In this document: in pieces, positions 26 to 11,300 of the stretch
Numbering within the stretch: the first letter of the stretch is position 1
How the letters are laid out: every line of letters starts with the position of its first letter
From: a virus
Taxonomy: Duplodnaviria; Heunggongvirae; Uroviricota; Caudoviricetes
IMG/VR virus record: IMGVR_UViG_2698536312_000012
Reading direction: 5' to 3' (one strand)
Length of the DNA stretch: 12,391 nt
The notes under the pieces: model-generated
Told to the model about the DNA's origin: nothing
Seen by the model: the letters and a program-made list of their open reading frames with translations, nothing else
The model's database searches: none
Program-made: the position numbers and the translations under genes

Positions 26-1231
26 TCACCCCGCCACAGAACAATTATTGCTTTTGCCGTTGATGACAATAAAGTTTTTATCGCAGGCGTACCNNNNNNN
101 NNNNNNNNNNNNNNNNNNNNNNNNNNNNNNNNNNNNNNNNNNNNNNNNNNNNNNNNNNNNNNNNNNNNNNNNNNNNNNNNNNNNNNNNNNNNNNNNNNNN
201 NNNNNNNNNNNNNNNNNNNNNNNNNNNNNNNNNNNNNNNNNNNNNNNNNNNNNNNNNNNNNNNNNNNNNNNNNNNNNNNNNNNNNNNNNNNNNNNNNNNN
301 NNNNNNNNNNNNNNNNNNNNNNNNNNNNNNNNNNNNNNNNNNNNNNNNNNNNNNNNNNNNNNNNNNNNNNNNNNNNNNNNNNNNNNNNNNNNNNNNNNNN
401 NNNNNNNNNNNNNNNNNNNNNNNNNNNNNNNNNNNNNNNNNNNNNNNNNNNNNNNNNNNNNNNNNNNNNNNNNNNNNNNNNNNNNNNNNNNNNNNNNNNN
501 NNNNNNNNNNNNNNNNNNNNNNNNNNNNNNNNNNNNNNNNNNNNNNNNNNNNNNNNNNNNNNNNNNNNNNNNNNNNNNNNNNNNNNNNNNNNNNNNNNNN
601 NNNNNNNNNNNNNNNNNNNNNNNNNNNNNNNNNNNNNNNNNNNNNNNNNNNNNNNNNNNNNNNNNNNNNNNNNNNNNNNNNNNNNNNNNNNNNNNNNNNN
701 NNNNNNNNNNNNNNNNNNNNNNNNNNNNNNNNNNNNNNNNNNNNNNNNNNNNNNNNNNNNNNNNNNNNNNNNNNNNNNNNNNNNNNNNNNNNNNNNNNNN
801 NNNNNNNNNNNNNNNNNNNNNNNNNNNNNNNNNNNNNNNNNNNNNNNNNNNNNNNNNNNNNNNNNNNNNNNNNNNNNNNNNNNNNNNNNNNNNNNNNNNN
901 NNNNNNNNNNNNNNNNNNNNNNNNNNNNNNNNNNNNNNNNNNNNNNNNNNNCATCAGCAGGCCTTATCTTTTGTTTAGAGAAAGTCATCTTTACCCAGCT
1001 TTCTCTGGACGCATCATCAGTAAGAGCAGCCTGCGAATCTCCCATACTTACAACCTGGCTGGGCCTTATCCATCGCCCCAGCCCCTCAACCGCACCAGCA
1101 TAAAACATGACAAAAATTGTTTTTGCAGCTATTTCCCGAATTAAATATCCACGATTCTCAGTCCCTTCAGGGAAAATTAATTGTAATCTTTCCCGGATAA
1201 CATTCAATGGGGGAACAACAGGCAGATTCAT
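26..1231 (-). CDS. Methyltransferase-coupled partner protein, candidate restriction endonuclease or other effector; most of the body is masked by N
   Basis: ATG at 1231-1229 overlaps the methyltransferase stop (ATGA), implying translational coupling. The visible N-terminal 93 aa (MNLPVVPPLNVIRERLQLIFPEGTENRGYLIREIAAKTIFV...) look protein-like. The frame is consistent with TGA at 28-26, but continuity through the 858-nt N-run cannot be verified and another frame also stays open to the window edge. Confidence 0.45.
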   Translation of the reverse strand: MNLPVVPPLNVIRERLQLIFPEGTENRGYLIREIAAKTIFVMFYAGAVEGLGRWIRPSQVVSMGDSQAALTDDASRESWVKMTFSKQKIRPADXXXXXXXXXXXXXXXXXXXXXXXXXXXXXXXXXXXXXXXXXXXXXXXXXXXXXXXXXXXXXXXXXXXXXXXXXXXXXXXXXXXXXXXXXXXXXXXXXXXXXXXXXXXXXXXXXXXXXXXXXXXXXXXXXXXXXXXXXXXXXXXXXXXXXXXXXXXXXXXXXXXXXXXXXXXXXXXXXXXXXXXXXXXXXXXXXXXXXXXXXXXXXXXXXXXXXXXXXXXXXXXXXXXXXXXXXXXXXXXXXXXXXXXXXXXXXXXXXXXXXXXXXXXXXXXXXXXXXXXXXXXXXXXYACDKNFIVINGKSNNCSVAG

Positions 1232-3060
1232 GCAATCATCACTCCATAGAAACCAGCGATAGTTCTCTCAATAATCCGTCTGTGGACGCCAGCATCAATT
1301 AACGATTGAATCTCCATCACCTGCTCCAGAGAAGGCAACGGGATTGAATTCAATTCATAGGCCGAAACAGCAACACTTCCGCTTATACACCTGAACGCCC
1401 GATCGACAACATGCGAATTAAGTAGCATATCAATAACATCAGGGCGAACCGCAGAGAACAATCCGTTTGAATATACAATATTAATATGGTTTTCAACTAC
1501 TACGCCACCAGTTTCATCTATAAATCCCTGAGGTAAAATTGCCGCTAAAATCCTTCTGTCCTGTTCCTTCGATGTTGTCCGCTGAACAAGCACACATTCA
1601 GATTTTGTCACAAGGAAACCCTGTTGTGGGGTTATATCGATATAGGGAACATGATTTTTTCTGTCTGCACTAAAACGAAAACCAGCTGAAGTTATTGATT
1701 CCGCCCAGACTAATGGGTAGCTATTTTTTCCTTTCGTCGTACGCAACTGCGACTTAAATCGATTCCAGACTAACTGACCTGTAGAGACTGAGTATCCCAG
1801 ATCAGCTAAACGCGTAGACATCTGTTTTAATACATTAAGAAAACAGGCATCATCTTTAACGCGTGGCAAAAGCCACGTTGCTCCACCTTTTTCTATATCA
1901 ACATTACCTATTTTCTCAATTTTTGCTTTGTTCAACCCCTTAGGGACAAGTGAGGATACCTGGGCCCGAACTTTATGTTCTCCCGCCTTGAATGCTGTCA
2001 ACATTGTTTCCTGGAGAACATCGTCAAAGACCCCATCCCTGTCAGTGACGAAATCAAGGGCATACGGAGTAGTTTTTTCGGTCAAAAGGGTTCGCAGCGC
2101 GGTGAAATACTGCCCACCAAGAAAAGAAGTTGGCGTAAGAAATGCAATAACTCCTGTTTTCTCTTTAACCATGCGAACAGCTAAGTCGGTGAACAATCCA
2201 TATAGATTTGCATGACCAAATAACGAACGAGAATATTTTTCTCTCGTTTTAATATCGAGAGTGACACGTCCGTAAGGCGGATTCCCTACCACAAGATCAT
2301 AACCAGAAAATTTATCTTGCTGAAGCGCATCAGCAACAATAATTGTATCTTCAGGCAATCTACGTTTTACCTTTACACATAGTGGCATTAGTACAGATTC
2401 GAGCAATACCAAACTCATCCAAGCCGCAAATGGATCGATTTCTATCCCCTTTAAACGACGACTGATTCTCCTCAACATCCATTCAGGGGAAGACCCCTTG
2501 TCTTTTTTTAACATTCGAATGGCTACTGGTGCCAAAAATGCACCGCCACCACACGCAGGATCAATAACCGATGCATGAGAAAAATCAACACCAGACTTTT
2601 CAGCCAGGTCCAAGAGACGCGCTACCAAAGGTGGGGGGGTATAGTAAGCCCCCAATTCCGAACGGTAAGCGGATGGCAGCATTACCGTATAAATTGACCC
2701 AATCAGATATCCAGCGTCCTCCGCCGGAAATTGAGCAATAAGCTCACCTGTTCGTTCAGCGAGCTCGCGTGCATCACATGGAATGTCTTCTATGTAAACA
2801 GTGTGCGGTACTGCCCTCATTTTAATGCTGCTTTTTTGCTTTTTTGCAAGGGTATCCCAATATGCAGCTACGATGCTGAAGCAGTATGAGCGGGCATGCA
2901 TCAACCTTGACTGCCCGGTTTTGTAATTGCCCGCATAACCTTTGGCCATGGCTTTACAAGTTTGATATCTTTCCAGATTAGAAAACTCATTATCTGTAAA
3001 AAAATCAAAATGTTGCACATTCATAATGTAAAATCCTAATGTATCAAACATGCGGGCCAT
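1228..3060 (-). CDS. N6-adenine DNA methyltransferase, gamma class (Eco57I/TaqI-like), with C-terminal target-recognition region
   Basis: 610-aa ORF with motif order GAYYTPPPLV (motif X-like), DPACGGGAFL (AdoMet motif I) and VVGNPPYGR (catalytic motif IV), then a ~300-aa C-terminal region with TaqI-C-like features (GQLVWNRF). Start could be ATG 3060 or 3051; both have a weak RBS. Confidence 0.9.
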   Translation of the reverse strand: MARMFDTLGFYIMNVQHFDFFTDNEFSNLERYQTCKAMAKGYAGNYKTGQSRLMHARSYCFSIVAAYWDTLAKKQKSSIKMRAVPHTVYIEDIPCDARELAERTGELIAQFPAEDAGYLIGSIYTVMLPSAYRSELGAYYTPPPLVARLLDLAEKSGVDFSHASVIDPACGGGAFLAPVAIRMLKKDKGSSPEWMLRRISRRLKGIEIDPFAAWMSLVLLESVLMPLCVKVKRRLPEDTIIVADALQQDKFSGYDLVVGNPPYGRVTLDIKTREKYSRSLFGHANLYGLFTDLAVRMVKEKTGVIAFLTPTSFLGGQYFTALRTLLTEKTTPYALDFVTDRDGVFDDVLQETMLTAFKAGEHKVRAQVSSLVPKGLNKAKIEKIGNVDIEKGGATWLLPRVKDDACFLNVLKQMSTRLADLGYSVSTGQLVWNRFKSQLRTTKGKNSYPLVWAESITSAGFRFSADRKNHVPYIDITPQQGFLVTKSECVLVQRTTSKEQDRRILAAILPQGFIDETGGVVVENHINIVYSNGLFSAVRPDVIDMLLNSHVVDRAFRCISGSVAVSAYELNSIPLPSLEQVMEIQSLIDAGVHRRIIERTIAGFYGVMIA

Positions 3061-3771: not shown

Positions 3772-4095
3772 TTATGTTCTGATGTCTGTCGTAGCNNNNN
3801 NNNNNNNNNNNNNNNNNNNNNNNNNNNNNNNNNNNNNNNNNNNNNNNNNNNNNNNNNNNNNNNNNNNNNNNNNNNNNNNNNNNNNNNNNNNNNNNNNNNN
3901 NNNNNNNNNNNNNNNNNNNNNNNNNNNNNNNNNNNNNNNNNNNNNNNNNNNNNNNNNNNNNNNNNNNNNNNNNNNNNNNNNNNNNNNNNNNNNNNNNNNN
4001 NNNNNNNNNNNNNNNNNNNNNNNNNNNNNNNNNNNNNNNNNNNNNNNNNNNNCCTTAATTTTTTCCCGCTCTTCCTGTGTAAATACTTTTGCCAT
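3772..4095 (-). CDS. Hypothetical small protein (about 107 aa), mostly masked by N
   Basis: ATG at 4095 lies 17 nt after the stop of the upstream gene; visible N-terminus MAKVFTQEEREKIK and C-terminus ATTDIRT-stop are in one frame if the N-run length is true. The interior cannot be checked. Confidence 0.35.
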   Translation of the reverse strand: MAKVFTQEEREKIKXXXXXXXXXXXXXXXXXXXXXXXXXXXXXXXXXXXXXXXXXXXXXXXXXXXXXXXXXXXXXXXXXXXXXXXXXXXXXXXXXXXXXXATTDIRT

Positions 4096-7468: not shown

Positions 7469-7533
7469 AATAGCACTGTTATTTTTAAAAGTAAATAGTG
7501 ATGCTATTTCAAAGTGATTAGCAATCTTATTAG
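7469..7533. promoter_or_regulatory. Divergent operator/promoter region with three related operator sites
   Basis: aATAGCactgTTATTt (7469-7484), aaATAGtgatgCTATTt (7493-7509), aTTAGCaatcTTATT (7518-7532); about 24-26 bp spacing; leftward promoter candidate TTTACT-17-TATTAA overlaps the sites. Confidence 0.55.
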
Positions 7534-7543
7534 AATTGGATGT

Positions 7544-8044
7544 ATGAAAAGAAAATCATTGTCAGACACCGACCTCAACGCCGCCAGAAGACTGAAAGAA
7601 ATCTGGATGGCAAAGAAATCTCAGTTGGGATTGACTCAGGAACGTGCGGCGGAAATTATGGGGTTTTCAACACAAGGGGCGGTAAGTCACTACCTAAATG
7701 GTCAAACCCCACTAAACCTTGAGGCTGTTCTAAAGTTTGCTGGCTTACTGAAAGTTCCCCCTGAGTCAATCAGGCCAGACATGGTAGATTTGCTGCAAAT
7801 TGCAAGGATGTATTGTCGAGAACCACAGCAAGATAACATAGTCGCATTACCAGCAGACACAGAACAAACAGAGGATGAACTACCGTTTGCCGTAGAGCCG
7901 ATGGAACGAGATTTAATCCATACGTTCAGAGCTTTTCCGAAAGAAGATCAAGAACACATGCTTCAGGAGATGAAAGATAAAAAAGAATCAATGGATCGTA
8001 CGGTTGCGCGGTGGTTAGCTGCACAAAAAGGCCGTCGCGCCTAA
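7544..8044 (+). CDS. paaR2: HTH (XRE-family) repressor, PaaR2-like regulator at the cI position
   Basis: HTH LTQERAAEIMGFSTQGAVSHYLNG; 166 aa from ATG 7544 (ORF track uses GTG 7514); first gene of a three-gene operon with antitoxin and ParE toxin; divergent from the Cro-like gene. Confidence 0.7.
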   Translation: MKRKSLSDTDLNAARRLKEIWMAKKSQLGLTQERAAEIMGFSTQGAVSHYLNGQTPLNLEAVLKFAGLLKVPPESIRPDMVDLLQIARMYCREPQQDNIVALPADTEQTEDELPFAVEPMERDLIHTFRAFPKEDQEHMLQEMKDKKESMDRTVARWLAAQKGRRA

Positions 8045-8063: not shown

Positions 8064-8258
8064 ATGAGTACAGTCCTTTCCCCAATGGTTTCAGAATTTG
8101 AGACAGTTGAGCAAGAAAATAGTTACAACGAATGGCTGCGGGCCAAAGTAGCAGCAAGCCTCGCGGATCCCCGCCCGGCGATTCCGCATGATGAGGTAAT
8201 GGCGGAAATGGAACAAATTATTGCCCAAATTGCTGCTGCAACTCACAGAGGTGAATAA
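8064..8258 (+). CDS. paaA2: Small antitoxin (PaaA2-like) of the ParE toxin
   Basis: 64 aa; AGGAGA SD 9 nt upstream; stop overlaps the toxin start (TAATG); acidic, helix-prone sequence typical of antitoxins. Confidence 0.75.
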   Translation: MSTVLSPMVSEFETVEQENSYNEWLRAKVAASLADPRPAIPHDEVMAEMEQIIAQIAAATHRGE

Positions 8259-8548
8259 TGTTACCCGTTTTATGGCTACCATCTGCTCGTGATGATTTGC
8301 GCCAGATCGTAGCCTACATAGCTAAAGAAAATCCCGCGGCAGCACGCAGAATGAAAATTCGAATTGAAACATCCGTTTTGCCGCTCACAGAGCATCCTTA
8401 CCTGTATCCTCCAAGCGAGCGAGTTCTTGGTCTTCGTGAAATTGTAACTCATCCTAACTACATCATCCTTTACCGAGTAACAGCATCAAGCATAGAAGTA
8501 GTAAATATTGTGCATTCTCGAAGACAGTATCCAGGCAAAAACAGTTAA
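8258..8548 (+). CDS. parE2: ParE/RelE-superfamily toxin (ParE2-like)
   Basis: 96 aa; ParE-like segments WLPSARDDLRQIVAYIAKENPAAARRM and EVVNIVHSRRQYP; translationally coupled to the upstream antitoxin. Confidence 0.85.
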   Translation: MLPVLWLPSARDDLRQIVAYIAKENPAAARRMKIRIETSVLPLTEHPYLYPPSERVLGLREIVTHPNYIILYRVTASSIEVVNIVHSRRQYPGKNS

Positions 8549-8564
8549 TTATTCCCGCCGACAG

Positions 8565-8587
8565 AACCACCTTAGGGTGGTTTTTTC
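8565..8587 (+). terminator. Rho-independent terminator of the repressor-antitoxin-toxin operon
   Basis: 7-bp stem aaccacc / ggtggtt with loop ttag, followed by a T-run (tttttt). Confidence 0.7.
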
Positions 8588-8603
8588 TTGCCCCAACAAA
8601 AAC

Positions 8604-8647
8604 AATAGCGATGCTATTTACATCAAAAAATAATGATGCTATTTTTT
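8604..8647. promoter_or_regulatory. Second operator cluster (two sites) with candidate rightward promoter for the ydfA-dicF-dicB operon
   Basis: aATAGCgatgCTATTt (8604-8619) and aATAAtgatgCTATTt (8630-8645), same ATAG-N5-CTAT motif as at 7469-7533; TTTACA-17-TATTTT overlaps the second site. Confidence 0.5.
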
Positions 8648-8824
8648 CAGGCGTCAACCCACCCCGCCCCACAGAATGCAGGGCAATACTTCGAGTTACC
8701 AGACAGTGGTCAGGGGTTAAGTAGCCAGCCCGAGGCGTAAGAACATGACGGCAGGGTTCAATCTTTAACTATGCAGCAGGTTTTTTGTTCCGCCACCCCG
8801 GCGTTAAGGGGAAATGAGGTCAGC

Positions 8825-8988: not shown

Positions 8989-9354
8989 ATGGAATTTAAA
9001 GATTTACCGTCTGATGTACAGAAAACAGCAGCTCATACATTGCATTCTGTGCTGCGAGAAATCGGGAAAGATATTGCAAGCGAGCCAGCAAAAGATCTGG
9101 CCCGGAAAATCAAGACCGCTTTCGTTGAGCTTTATAATGTTGGCACTGACTCTGAAACTGTCGAGACCAAGACCGTAAGTTCACCAATATTCTCACTTGA
9201 GCCAAGCGTATTATCAGGTGAAATATGCACCGAGATTTCCAGCGAACTGCTTCCGGTAATACGAGAAGCAATTCGCCGTCGCGGTTTGGATGGAAGTTAT
9301 GATCATGACGTTCTGCAAGTTCTCAGGACAATGGTGACTTCACTGGGGATTTGA
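8989..9354 (+). CDS. Hypothetical protein (Qin ydfB/ydfC-region equivalent)
   Basis: ATG 8989 with GAGG SD; 121 aa; follows the ydfA-like gene by 12 nt; alternative start ATG 8977. Confidence 0.55.
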   Translation: MEFKDLPSDVQKTAAHTLHSVLREIGKDIASEPAKDLARKIKTAFVELYNVGTDSETVETKTVSSPIFSLEPSVLSGEICTEISSELLPVIREAIRRRGLDGSYDHDVLQVLRTMVTSLGI

Positions 9355-9523
9355 TCCCTGCGTCCTCTAAGCTTTTGATATAGCGGTCCTCCAAGAAGCG
9401 GTAAATTTTGTCGAAATCATCTTTTCCCTCTGGTTTATTCAGAGGATTACAGGACCCGTAAGTAGCGGCATACATTTCAACCGTTTTATCAAAAATATAA
9501 GAGACAAATTCTTCTTTAGTCAT
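9323..9523 (-). CDS. Candidate small protein (66 aa) convergent with and overlapping the upstream plus-strand gene
   Basis: ATG 9523 preceded by AAGGAAATCTAT (good SD); protein-like composition (MTKEEFVSYIFDKTVEMYAATYG...); overlaps 9323-9354 of the plus-strand gene, so it remains uncertain. Confidence 0.3.
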   Translation of the reverse strand: MTKEEFVSYIFDKTVEMYAATYGSCNPLNKPEGKDDFDKIYRFLEDRYIKSLEDAGIKSPVKSPLS

Positions 9524-9708
9524 ATAGATTTCCTTCTTGGTTATTCGGGATAAGAAGGATACCACCTCGCCTGACGTGGTTAAAAGCAGGCACACAACGC
9601 GAAATGACGCGGCGGTAAGTATGGCGGAGTTATTCCTTCCCCGTTGAGGACACCGGGTTGTCAGGTTGACCATACGCTTAAGTGACAACCACGCCACAAC
9701 ACTCCATG

Positions 9709-9764
9709 TTGATTGGTACCTTTGGCGGCATCAGTTTCATTGCTGGCTGATGTCCGCCCTTTTT
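9709..9764 (+). ncRNA. dicF: DicF-like small RNA with intrinsic terminator
   Basis: tttggcggcatcagtttcattgctggctgatgtccgccctttttaaagtgaattttgtgatg closely resembles my recollection of K-12 DicF and its 3' flank; hairpin GGCGGCATCAG / CTGATGtCCGCC followed by a T-run; located between the ydfA-like gene and dicB as in Qin. Confidence 0.7.
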
Positions 9765-10060
9765 AAAGTGAATTTTGTGATGCGGTGAATGCGGCTCAGC
9801 GCACGCGGCACAGTTAAAAAGCGATTAGTTCCCCCGTATCGGGTGGTTATGGGTTTCCCTGTATCCGGCGTTAATTGTTAACTGGTTAACGTCACCTGGA
9901 GGCACCAGGCACCGCATCAACAAAGTTCACTTCGGTGATGAAAGGAAAGAGAAAATGTTGAATGTAGCTATTGAAAACCAGAACGGGTGGAATTATAGTG
10001 CACCTGCACCTTATAAAACGGGTGCCGGGCGTGGAAACCCGAACGTTACTCGAGCGCATA

Positions 10061-10082
10061 GCCGCGCTGAAGCGGTTTTTTT
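10061..10082 (+). terminator. Candidate intrinsic terminator or attenuator hairpin in the Rha leader
   Basis: agCCGCgctgaaGCGG followed by seven T; additional flanking complementarity cgcata / tatgcg; short stem, so weak. Confidence 0.3.
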
Positions 10083-10251
10083 ATGCGTAATGCACAGCTC
10101 CATTCAAATTATGGTGGGATGTGCAGGGCAGTCGCAAGACTGGCCGGGTTCTCGAGTGACCGGTATTTCCACCCCTGTACGTCACACCACCCTTATGGTC
10201 GTGGAAAACCTCGGTGGTGAGTTAATTAACTTATCACTCGAGGATGCCATC

Positions 10252-10809
10252 ATGGCTACTATCCCTGCCCTTTCTCACCCTGACGTAACCATCGAAAATG
10301 GTCGCGCTGTCACTACGTCTATTGCGATCGCAGAGTTCTTTGGCAAGCGTCACGACAATGTGTTACGTGCCATCGCAAATACTGAATGCTCACCTGAATT
10401 TAACGCCCTCAATTTTGAGGACGTCACCTACACTGACGCCAAAGGCGAAAAACGCCCGATGTACCAAATCACCAAAAACGGCTTCGTTTTCCTGGTGATG
10501 GGATTCACTGGCAAAAAAGCCGCTGCATTTAAAGAAGCCTACATTGCTGAGTTCGATCGCATGGAGGCCGAACTGCGCCAGAATAACACCCCACCCACTG
10601 ACAAAATAATTCCAGGCGATGGCCGCACCCTGGTTGTTCACTTCGACGAACGCGGCAACATCAGATTCACCGAAACCGTTCCTGATGGCGCACGGGTCTG
10701 TACCATGGAGACTTTCCGGTTTTATCTGGAAGAACAGGGATGGACTCTTGTTAACCGGGGCGCAATTAAAAATATGACTGTAGAGCAATTACTCAAAATT
10801 CATTGTTGA
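10252..10809 (+). CDS. rha: Rha-family phage regulatory protein
   Basis: Rha-like segment AIAEFFGKRHDNVLRAIAN...MYQITKNGFVFLVMGFTGKKAAAFKEAYIAEFDRME; ATG 10252 with AGGA SD 7 nt upstream puts the domain near the N-terminus. The same frame is open back to an ATG at 9955 with a strong SD (AGGAAAGAG), so a 284-aa form is possible. Confidence 0.7.
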   Translation: MATIPALSHPDVTIENGRAVTTSIAIAEFFGKRHDNVLRAIANTECSPEFNALNFEDVTYTDAKGEKRPMYQITKNGFVFLVMGFTGKKAAAFKEAYIAEFDRMEAELRQNNTPPTDKIIPGDGRTLVVHFDERGNIRFTETVPDGARVCTMETFRFYLEEQGWTLVNRGAIKNMTVEQLLKIHC

Positions 10810-10819
10810 GGACGCGATA

Positions 10820-11008
10820 ATGGAAACGTTATTACCAAACGTTAATACGACTGAAGGTTGTTTTGAAATTGGTGTCACTATCAGTAACCCTGTATTTACT
10901 GAAGATGCCATTAACAAGAGAAAACACGAACGGGAGCTATTAAATAAAATATGCATTGTTTCAATGCTGGCTCGTTTGCGTCTGATGCAAAAAGGATGCT
11001 GGCGATGA
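10820..11008 (+). CDS. dicB: DicB cell-division inhibitor
   Basis: 62 aa (METLLPNVNTTEGCFEIGVTISNPVFTEDAINKRK...CIVSMLARLRLM) matching my recollection of DicB; GAGGA SD 7 nt upstream; stop overlaps the next start (ATGA). Confidence 0.8.
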   Translation: METLLPNVNTTEGCFEIGVTISNPVFTEDAINKRKHERELLNKICIVSMLARLRLMQKGCWR

Positions 11009-11196: not shown

Positions 11197-11300
11197 AGCA
11201 GCCACGTAATAAATATCCGGTTTCATTTTTATATGCCAGCAATGGCAGGGATTTGTTCACCCTTAAATCTGTAATGAGGTTAAAACAAAATGAGTNNAAA

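Follow-up and report, generated by a model that had tools for sequence, protein, structure and literature searches.

The segment from about 9955 to 10809 of the Caudoviricetes virus record IMGVR_UViG_2698536312_000012 (12,391 nucleotides (nt) of one strand, hereafter the window) is probably an inserted prophage antisense-RNA switch of the type known from P4, from immI of P1 and from the isrK locus of Gifsy-1, which would silence a Rha-family antirepressor. Judged from sequence, the identification of the module is secure. An earlier note had described 9765-10251 as a structured leader upstream of the Rha gene, and had proposed either that Rha carries an N-terminal extension of roughly 100 amino acids (aa) or that the interval is an attenuator-type leader. 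That the interval is structured was confirmed by RNA structure prediction, with folding z-scores relative to shuffled controls of -4.0 for 9765-9954 and -6.2 for the read-through leader 10006-10260, and two Rfam families score there above their gathering scores.

The first of these two RNA genes, isrK (seqA of P4), matches RF01394 over the complete model (1-77 of 77) with 61.2 bits, for a gathering score of 50, and the second, a C4-type antisense RNA corresponding to CI of P4 and STnc1160 of Gifsy-1, matches RF01695 over positions 1-87 of 87 with 70.9 bits (gathering score 45). The two are separated by 24 nt, and the tandem is common to nine of ten related loci (the exception being K-12 Qin), P4 and Gifsy-1. 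In a nucleotide comparison, homology to other phages starts at 10003-10007, which is the 5′ end of isrK. A promoter-like site, PisrK, lies 6 nt before this end, and its -35/-10 pair is maintained in unrelated upstream contexts as TTGAYW-17-TAYACT; the Gifsy-1 homologue has TTGACA-17-TATATT. The hairpin followed by seven T residues that the earlier note had placed at 10061-10082 is indeed present as a 6-bp GC-rich stem (Table 1), and is the predicted terminator of the IsrK small RNA (sRNA). The C4 RNA has a 17-bp closing helix around two hairpins and a conserved 3′ CACCACC. Antisense RNAs of the P1/P4 type are cut from a leader transcript, by RNase P at the 5′ end, and accumulate as stable species; the long closing helix and the 3′ CACCACC are compatible with such processing of C4. 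A 45-aa open reading frame (ORF) at 10083-10220, directly after the IsrK T-run, was considered as a homologue of Gifsy-1 orf45 and rejected because its frame is not that of orf45; it matches no family, and the equal length is a coincidence.

Two recognition elements in C4, the b′ loop and the a′ junction, are each complementary to two targets, a′ to a1 and a2 and b′ to b1 and b2, so that one pair of targets lies upstream of C4, within isrK, and the other downstream. All 12 bases of b2 can pair with the b′ loop, with a duplex energy of -18.2 kcal/mol, and b2 overlies the Shine-Dalgarno (SD) sequence GAGGA (10240-10244) of the ATG at 10252. To assess these pairings, homologues were gathered from IMG/VR by nucleotide patterns, without reliance on ORF calls. 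In 40 distinct aligned modules, pairing in the internal helices of C4 amounts to 95.2%, and 11 pairs have changed in both partners; the a1-a′ and b1-b′ pairs are 98.4% paired, 13 of 16 being compensatory. None of 500 shuffles reached the observed values, and slid controls gave 33-52%. The a′-a2 and b′-b2 pairs, tested in the register of the window, are only 64% paired, the sites being offset by 1-3 columns between specificity types. Since the register shifts between types, the downstream sites were re-tested by alignment-free duplex energies. For all 21 distinct a′/b′ combinations the best b′ duplex 3′ of C4 covers an SD-type purine run (GAGG, GGGG or AAGG) just before a start codon, and the mean energy of the duplex between b′ and the downstream site is -14.9 kcal/mol for cognate and -7.7 kcal/mol for non-cognate pairs.

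The loops vary as sets. At least 6 a-types and at least 12 b-types occur in varied combinations in the alignment of 45 distinct modules that was used for start codons and stops, which is the specificity logic of P1 and P7, where the loop sequences that set specificity differ between heteroimmune relatives. This diversity implies that enterobacterial prophages harbour a large repertoire of heteroimmune RNA switches.

The start codon that b2 would control is conserved. The ATG 10252 column is kept in all 45 aligned modules, including those with a non-Rha gene downstream. In the window this ATG, 7 nt after the SD sequence within b2, opens the Rha frame directly. Variability at third codon positions arises only downstream of it, and in the Rha domain, used as a control, the entropies at codon positions 1, 2 and 3 are 0.50, 0.43 and 1.03. 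The match to Phage_pRha (PF09669; 110.8 bits, E = 4.8e-32, curated cut-off 29.9 bits) begins only at about nt 10312, aa 120 of the long ORF described below; what the earlier note called the Rha domain start is a conserved internal ATG, and the domain match itself starts further on.

From these elements we propose two routes of expression. In one of them, the promoter inside the long ORF would start transcripts at about 10006, most of which would end at the hairpin and T-run to give the 77-nt IsrK sRNA with a1 and b1. The read-through RNA would carry C4, whose exposed a′ and b′ could pair with a2 and b2, and Rha would stay untranslated because b2 covers the SD sequence of its start codon. IsrK could lift this block by competing for a′ and b′, because it carries the same two sites, as a1 and b1; such relief has been demonstrated by experiment for Gifsy-1. 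In the other route, transcripts of the upstream dicBF operon that read through DicF could be translated from the ATG at 9955, the probable start of the long frame, and the ribosomes would cross isrK, C4 and a2/b2 in frame into Rha, yielding a 284-aa form that evades the RNA block.

Table 1 Features of the antisense-RNA module and of its surroundings (positions are those of the window)
Feature	Position	Strand	Remarks
SD-like AAGGA and ATG, start of long eta-like ORF	AAGGA 9942-9946; ATG 9955-9957	+	8-nt spacing
Long ORF, 284 aa	9955-10809	+	aa 14-109 Phage_ASH, aa 120-204 Phage_pRha
Promoter-like site PisrK	9971-9999	+	TTGAAA-17 nt-TATAGT; inside long ORF
isrK sRNA	10006-10082	+	Rfam RF01394
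a1 target	10031-10037		GTGGAAA; loop of hairpin 2 in isrK
b1 target	10046-10054		TTACTCGAG; in isrK
Predicted isrK terminator	stem 10060-10065/10072-10077; T7 10076-10082		6-bp GC-rich hairpin
C4-type antisense RNA	10107-10194	+	Rfam RF01695
Conserved AUG, 5′ side of C4	10111-10113	+	long-ORF frame; equals first start codon of Gifsy-1 orf45
b′ loop	10148-10159		GTTCTCGAGTGA; C4 recognition element
a′ junction	10166-10172		TTTCCAC; C4 recognition element
a2 target	10201-10207	+	GTGGAAA; complementary to a′
b2 target	10234-10245	+	TCACTCGAGGAT; complementary to b′ loop
Nested (kil-position) ATG and Rha-family antirepressor frame, 185 aa	10252-10809	+	SD GAGGA 10240-10244
Direct repeat, left copy	9921-9929	+	CAAAGTTCA; flanks isrK-C4-rha block
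Direct repeat, right copy	10794-10802		CAAAATTCA; other border of isrK-C4-rha block
Structured dicF-dicB spacer, STnc100-like	9766-9932	+
DicF-like sRNA	9711-9759	+	terminator hairpin 9727-9754, T-run to ~9764; left neighbour, outside module
DicA/cI-like helix-turn-helix repressor gene	7514-8044
PaaA2/ParE toxin-antitoxin pair	8064-8548		right after repressor gene, same strand
YdfA (DUF1391)			between toxin-antitoxin pair and DicF-like RNA
DicB	10820-11008		3′ of Rha-domain ORF
DUF1482/YdfD-like ORF			after DicB

The ATG at 9955 does follow an SD-like sequence and is in frame with Rha, as the earlier note had stated. It opens a frame that runs stop-free to 10809, in phase with ATG 10252, the preceding in-frame stop being at 9826. 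The product matches Phage_ASH (PF10554) at aa 14-109 with 60.4 bits (curated cut-off 26 bits), and this match is the translation of the promoter, isrK, C4 and a2/b2. RefSeq places the start of the long ORF at the 9955 equivalent in the homologous loci L001-L003, and gene callers use the long ORF throughout; all 120 best database homologue clusters carry PF10554 together with PF09669 and measure 279-294 aa, except for one 232-aa partial sequence. In other genomic contexts an in-frame ATG with an SD sequence, or an ATGA shared with the gene before it, lies 51-57 nt before the +1 of isrK. A uniform start of homologues at the 9955 equivalent, which the earlier note had named, together with conserved N-terminal residues and an absence of termination at 10082, as evidence against its reading, was found at the level of annotation, but the conserved residues correspond to promoter and RNA conservation at the nucleotide level.

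The extension shows no sign of evolving as a protein. Its entropies at codon positions 1, 2 and 3 are flat (0.46, 0.52 and 0.50), its amino acids swap radically wherever the RNA loops change, and some members carry compensated local frameshifts, in which PVRLTT becomes PLYVSPP before the frame is regained further on. In an AlphaFold model built on a shallow alignment, aa 1-100 have a predicted local distance difference test score (pLDDT) of 22-26 and no secondary structure, in a model that is poor as a whole (mean pLDDT 37.7). The N-terminal extension suggested by the earlier note therefore stands as an annotated open frame from 9955, but, with flat codon-position entropy, not as a stretch under protein-level constraint.

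The frame is nevertheless kept open. From the +1 of isrK to the nested ATG, the long-ORF frame is stop-free in all 45 distinct modules of the first sample, although that of L105 does not share the phase of the nested ATG (a search of the phage collection gave no match to an L105-type module). In L102, a decayed copy, the promoter region just upstream contains a stop. Stop columns number 17 and 19 in the two remaining frames of the 45 modules, and about 16 in each frame are lineage-specific; the long-ORF frame has no lineage-specific stop column. Among 162 distinct variants of the variable segments, none has a stop in the long-ORF frame, compared with 64 and 59 in the other two. This stop-avoidance signal is real but moderate. 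In a second sample, collected through a different anchor and comprising 86 distinct cores, the open frame shares the phase of the nested ATG in 49 cores and lies in another phase in 21; seven cores have no recognisable nested ATG. The scan also recovered C4 loci without an IsrK-type flank, and the corresponding frame contains stops in most of them. The extension therefore lacks the codon-position signature of protein selection, yet its frame is kept open within the subfamily. We tentatively suggest, at somewhat less than even confidence, that the Phage_ASH region of lambdoid Rha/Bro-type genes is a translated RNA-regulatory cassette, selected for its RNA pairings and its stop-free frame rather than for its amino acids, so that upstream ribosomes could bypass the antisense block. 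Under this double constraint the many heteroimmune a/b specificity cassettes would be exchanged, and the frame would decay where there is no upstream route, as in loci of the Gifsy-1 type.

Two further observations concern the frame in other loci. In the IMG/VR loci L256, L260, L263 and L271 and their relatives, the frame that spans isrK and C4 starts with MTTYKNRL.., in a phase other than that of the nested start (MANRKQ..), and goes on across the downstream gene, not in its reading frame, with no stop over some 300 nt or more. Upstream ORF extensions of at least 1,000 nt in L096, L104, L126, L098 and L094 were considered as real fusions and discarded, their translations resembling shadow ORFs of opposite-strand genes.

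Several results weigh against the antisense switch with a translated bypass. A promoter scan alone is non-significant, with 4 sites for 2.1 expected, and promoter activity, termination efficiency and start-codon use at this locus are predictions from homology and sequence. The combined family c4-a1b1 (RF03163) gives only 24.8 bits at 9993-10045, under its gathering score of 46.7; the a1/b1 complementarity itself is present and co-varying despite this score. When the whole read-through leader is folded in silico, a1 and b1 pair with a′ and b′ in cis and b2 with the SD sequence lies in a local hairpin, and because of this cis pairing the exact active and inactive conformers are uncertain. As for the open frame, a conservative control by column resampling of the alignment leaves 56% of sequences stop-free, the sampled sequences are phylogenetically related, and 10 of the 86 cores of the second sample have no open frame across the module. 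The two of these that were inspected are similar to Gifsy-1 in arrangement, with 3-4 stops in the equivalent frame. Such Gifsy-1-like cores are a natural negative control, from which it follows that the frame can decay, and because up to 4 stops break the frame in Gifsy-1 and about 10 related cores, the long ORF is not universal to the system. Separately, the predicted whole-leader fold is similar to the 'structure A' that was described as inactive for Gifsy-1.

The long ORF could be a gene-caller artefact, with a purely non-coding leader, Rha made solely from ATG 10252, and an open frame that is an ancestral accident. The missing third-position signature, amino acids that follow RNA covariation and tolerate local frameshifts, the promoter located inside the ORF and the unstructured AlphaFold prediction all fit this explanation, as do the share of stop-free sequences reached by resampling chance and the Gifsy-1 subfamily, where there are stops in frame and AnrP starts at the nested ATG. 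Against an accident stand the lack of any lineage-specific stop column or of any stop among the variable-segment variants, when the other frames have many, and the recurrence of an in-frame SD sequence and ATG, or of an ATGA overlap, in unrelated upstream contexts; P4 eta, moreover, is a documented translated ORF of equal layout. We regard the artefact as unlikely, though deserving of some weight. The opposite position, that Phage_ASH is a genuine folded N-terminal domain of Rha/Bro-type regulators and the RNA matches are secondary to the coding sequence, draws on the strong PF10554 match, on its constant partnership with PF09669 in proteins of nearly uniform length, and on the inclusion of Ash among the 'Bro network' domains (PMC10111431). 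It is very improbable in view of the equal variability at the three codon positions, unlike in the adjacent Rha domain, the compensatory substitutions at the RNA level in helices and intermolecular sites, the promoter and terminator T-run within the stretch, the segments that appear in a shifted frame in some members, and the model without predicted structure there. The conserved open frame from 9955 most likely serves translating ribosomes as a bypass, like that of P4, rather than coding for a folded domain.

A classical transcription attenuator, in which 10060-10082 would be a regulated terminator read through by leader-peptide translation or antiterminator pairing, with no RNA acting in trans, is a reading that we hardly credit. 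A hairpin with T7 does stand between a promoter-like site and a gene, the ORF crosses it, and Gifsy-1 transcripts partly read through the equivalent terminator, but here the terminated product belongs to a known sRNA family, the strongest constraint is a loop-target complementarity with set-wise covariation, for which an attenuator has no need, and the second target, over an SD sequence, points to translational control and not only to termination. Of the attenuator-type leader in the earlier note, the regulatory RNA leader is retained, and the classical attenuator gives way to an IsrK terminator and antisense pairing.

P4 shares with the window an internal promoter, an IsrK-type seqA, a C4-type CI RNA and a downstream target (seqC) at a nested start, in equal order, as well as a single long ORF across the module that is in frame with a shorter nested product and matches Phage_ASH; in P4 itself, control is exerted mainly by ending transcription prematurely. 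In the P4 sequence isrK lies at 8615-8692, C4 at 8420-8507, and one ORF (8168-8812) spans both, with a nested '..EAAIMATTLT..' start that gives a 65-aa product; the start motif '..EAAIMAT..' is common to P4 and the window. The two differ in the distance between isrK and C4 (107 nt in P4, 24 nt in the window), in the nested product, which is the 65-aa Kil in P4 and a 185-aa Rha-family antirepressor in the window, and in the element itself, P4 being a satellite and the window a lambdoid Qin-like prophage. According to PMC10111431, the P4 CI RNA is located in the gene eta, which has a constitutive promoter internal to it, and Kil is a truncated product of a nested start within eta. Full-length Eta is described as made only from an upstream promoter and coupled to an upstream gene, its translation overriding the termination or RNA block (PMC10111431).

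Gifsy-1 likewise has isrK and C4 (STnc1160) followed by an antirepressor-like gene, AnrP, and the same conserved AUG at the 5′ side of C4 (10111 in the window). In experiments on that locus (Hershko-Shalev et al. 2016), the isrK promoter drives the short IsrK and a translationally silent read-through mRNA that includes anrP, and IsrK activates in trans the translation of orf45 and of the coupled antirepressor (PMC4825925). Helix b-I of that system (G28/G31 with C162/C159; PMC4825925) corresponds to the a1-a′ pairing of the window. In Gifsy-1, however, the frame is closed by a stop upstream of the AUG, whereas in the window it is open from 9955; orf45 ends in an ATGA overlap with anrP (translational coupling), whereas the frame in the window is fused to Rha with no stop; and the module follows antQ in the late region, whereas that of the window lies in the early-left operon. 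With immI of P1 and P7 the window shares the layout of a1 b1, then c4 with a′ and b′, then a2 b2, with b2 over the ribosome-binding site (RBS). The icd gene that P1 has between b2 and ant has no counterpart as an intervening ORF in the window, and the antirepressor is Ant1/2 in P1/P7 and of Rha type in the window.

The isrK-C4-rha module occupies a block, approximately 9933-10810, between the dicF-dicB spacer and dicB. The stretch 9766-9932 is almost identical to the dicF-dicB spacer of the K-12 Qin prophage, and the left part of the interval (9765 to about 9930) is nearly invariant compared with it; in K-12 the spacer continues directly into the dicB RBS and the block is missing, which identifies the block as an intercalated module. 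The repeat consensus CAAARTTCA occurs in two copies in the window, flanking the block, and in a single copy in K-12, joined directly to the dicB RBS, which suggests that the block may have been gained or lost by recombination at this short direct repeat. Either repeat copy could supply the 3′ strand of the spacer closing helix with 9766-9778. The earlier note had held the layout to be unusual within the dicF-dicB interval. This does not hold: window 9700-10900, a stretch that includes the whole block, is present over at least 80% of its length in 373 of 5,426 complete Escherichia coli genomes, where the long ORF has a RefSeq annotation. In most complete E. coli genomes, and in those of the K-12 type, only both ends of 9700-10900 are matched. 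The RefSeq annotation here consists only of a 284-aa 'Rha family phage regulatory protein', without the two RNA genes or the internal start.

The spacer to the left is, on sequence comparison, a separate unit, the dicB leader, and includes the double GTTAAC element (GTTAACtgGTTAAC) that the earlier note had assigned to the Rha leader. The element exists, although at 9877-9890, one base away from the 9876-9889 given, and within a longer sequence (GTTAATTGTTAACTGGTTAAC); it belongs to the conserved spacer and not to the Rha module. In an alignment of five Qin-like prophage loci including K-12 it is invariant, and the near-invariance with K-12 extends over both GTTAATTGTTAACTGGTTAAC and the CCTGG/CCAGG hairpin. 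The number of GTTAAC sites in the window (5, for about 3 expected) is unremarkable. The predicted spacer fold has a minimum free energy of -70.2 kcal/mol and has a closing helix of 22 bp (9766-9787 with 9910-9932) that encloses several hairpins. One of these, GGCGTTAATT/GGTTAACGTC (9867-9876 with 9884-9893, loop GTTAACT), carries both GTTAAC sites, one in the loop and the other in the 3′ arm, and another is CCTGG-AGGCA-CCAGG (9895-9899 with 9905-9909). A role of the GTTAAC pair in DNA binding was considered; its place is in a predicted hairpin of an RNA spacer that K-12 shares. The closing helix follows directly 3′ of the DicF terminator and could be an RNase III-type substrate; in K-12 its 3′ strand lies just 5′ of the dicB SD sequence. 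The family matches in this flank are below threshold, with 38.8 bits for the DicF-like RNA at 9711-9759 (RF00039, gathering score 48; the K-12 copy reaches 76.7 bits) and a partial match of 31.6 bits for STnc100 at 9771-9924 (RF02076, gathering score 47), which is sub-threshold in every locus tested. Despite these scores, the homology of the left flank to K-12 Qin is clear. The DicF homologue is diverged in the hairpin loop.

By gene and family annotation, the window comprises the immunity and early-left region of a Qin-like lambdoid prophage, in the order repressor, PaaA2/ParE, YdfA, DicF-like RNA, the interval studied here, Rha-domain ORF, DicB and DUF1482/YdfD-like ORF. Just before dicF, and converging on the ydfA operon, lies a 66-aa ORF on the minus strand (9326-9523, MTKEEFVSY...), for which Pfam gives no match and which is "hypothetical" in the 97%-identical RefSeq locus L001. 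At the far end of the prophage replication region, a 610-aa ORF on the minus strand (1228-3060) has Eco57I/N6_Mtase-type DNA methyltransferase domains. Runs of N (masked or unresolved) are present at 94-951, 3796-4052 and 11296-11297, the last of these being a two-base run just 5′ of the ORF after ydfD. A scan of genome contigs with a 14-base C4 pattern was discarded, its matches being almost all due to chance in high-GC genomes.

The principle known from P1, P4 and Gifsy-1 is unchanged by these results, and the module is common in E. coli, with its RNA genes omitted from annotation. What is moderately new is the quantitative evidence that Phage_ASH evolves under RNA constraints and stop avoidance and not under amino-acid selection, which gives quantitative grounds for caution over this 'domain'. 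The interchangeable specificity cassettes bear on cross-talk and heteroimmunity among co-resident prophages and satellites. At the dicBF locus itself, an RNA switch that probably gates the antirepressor and, through polarity, dicB would, with the present annotation, escape work on dicF/dicB toxicity or prophage induction in these strains.

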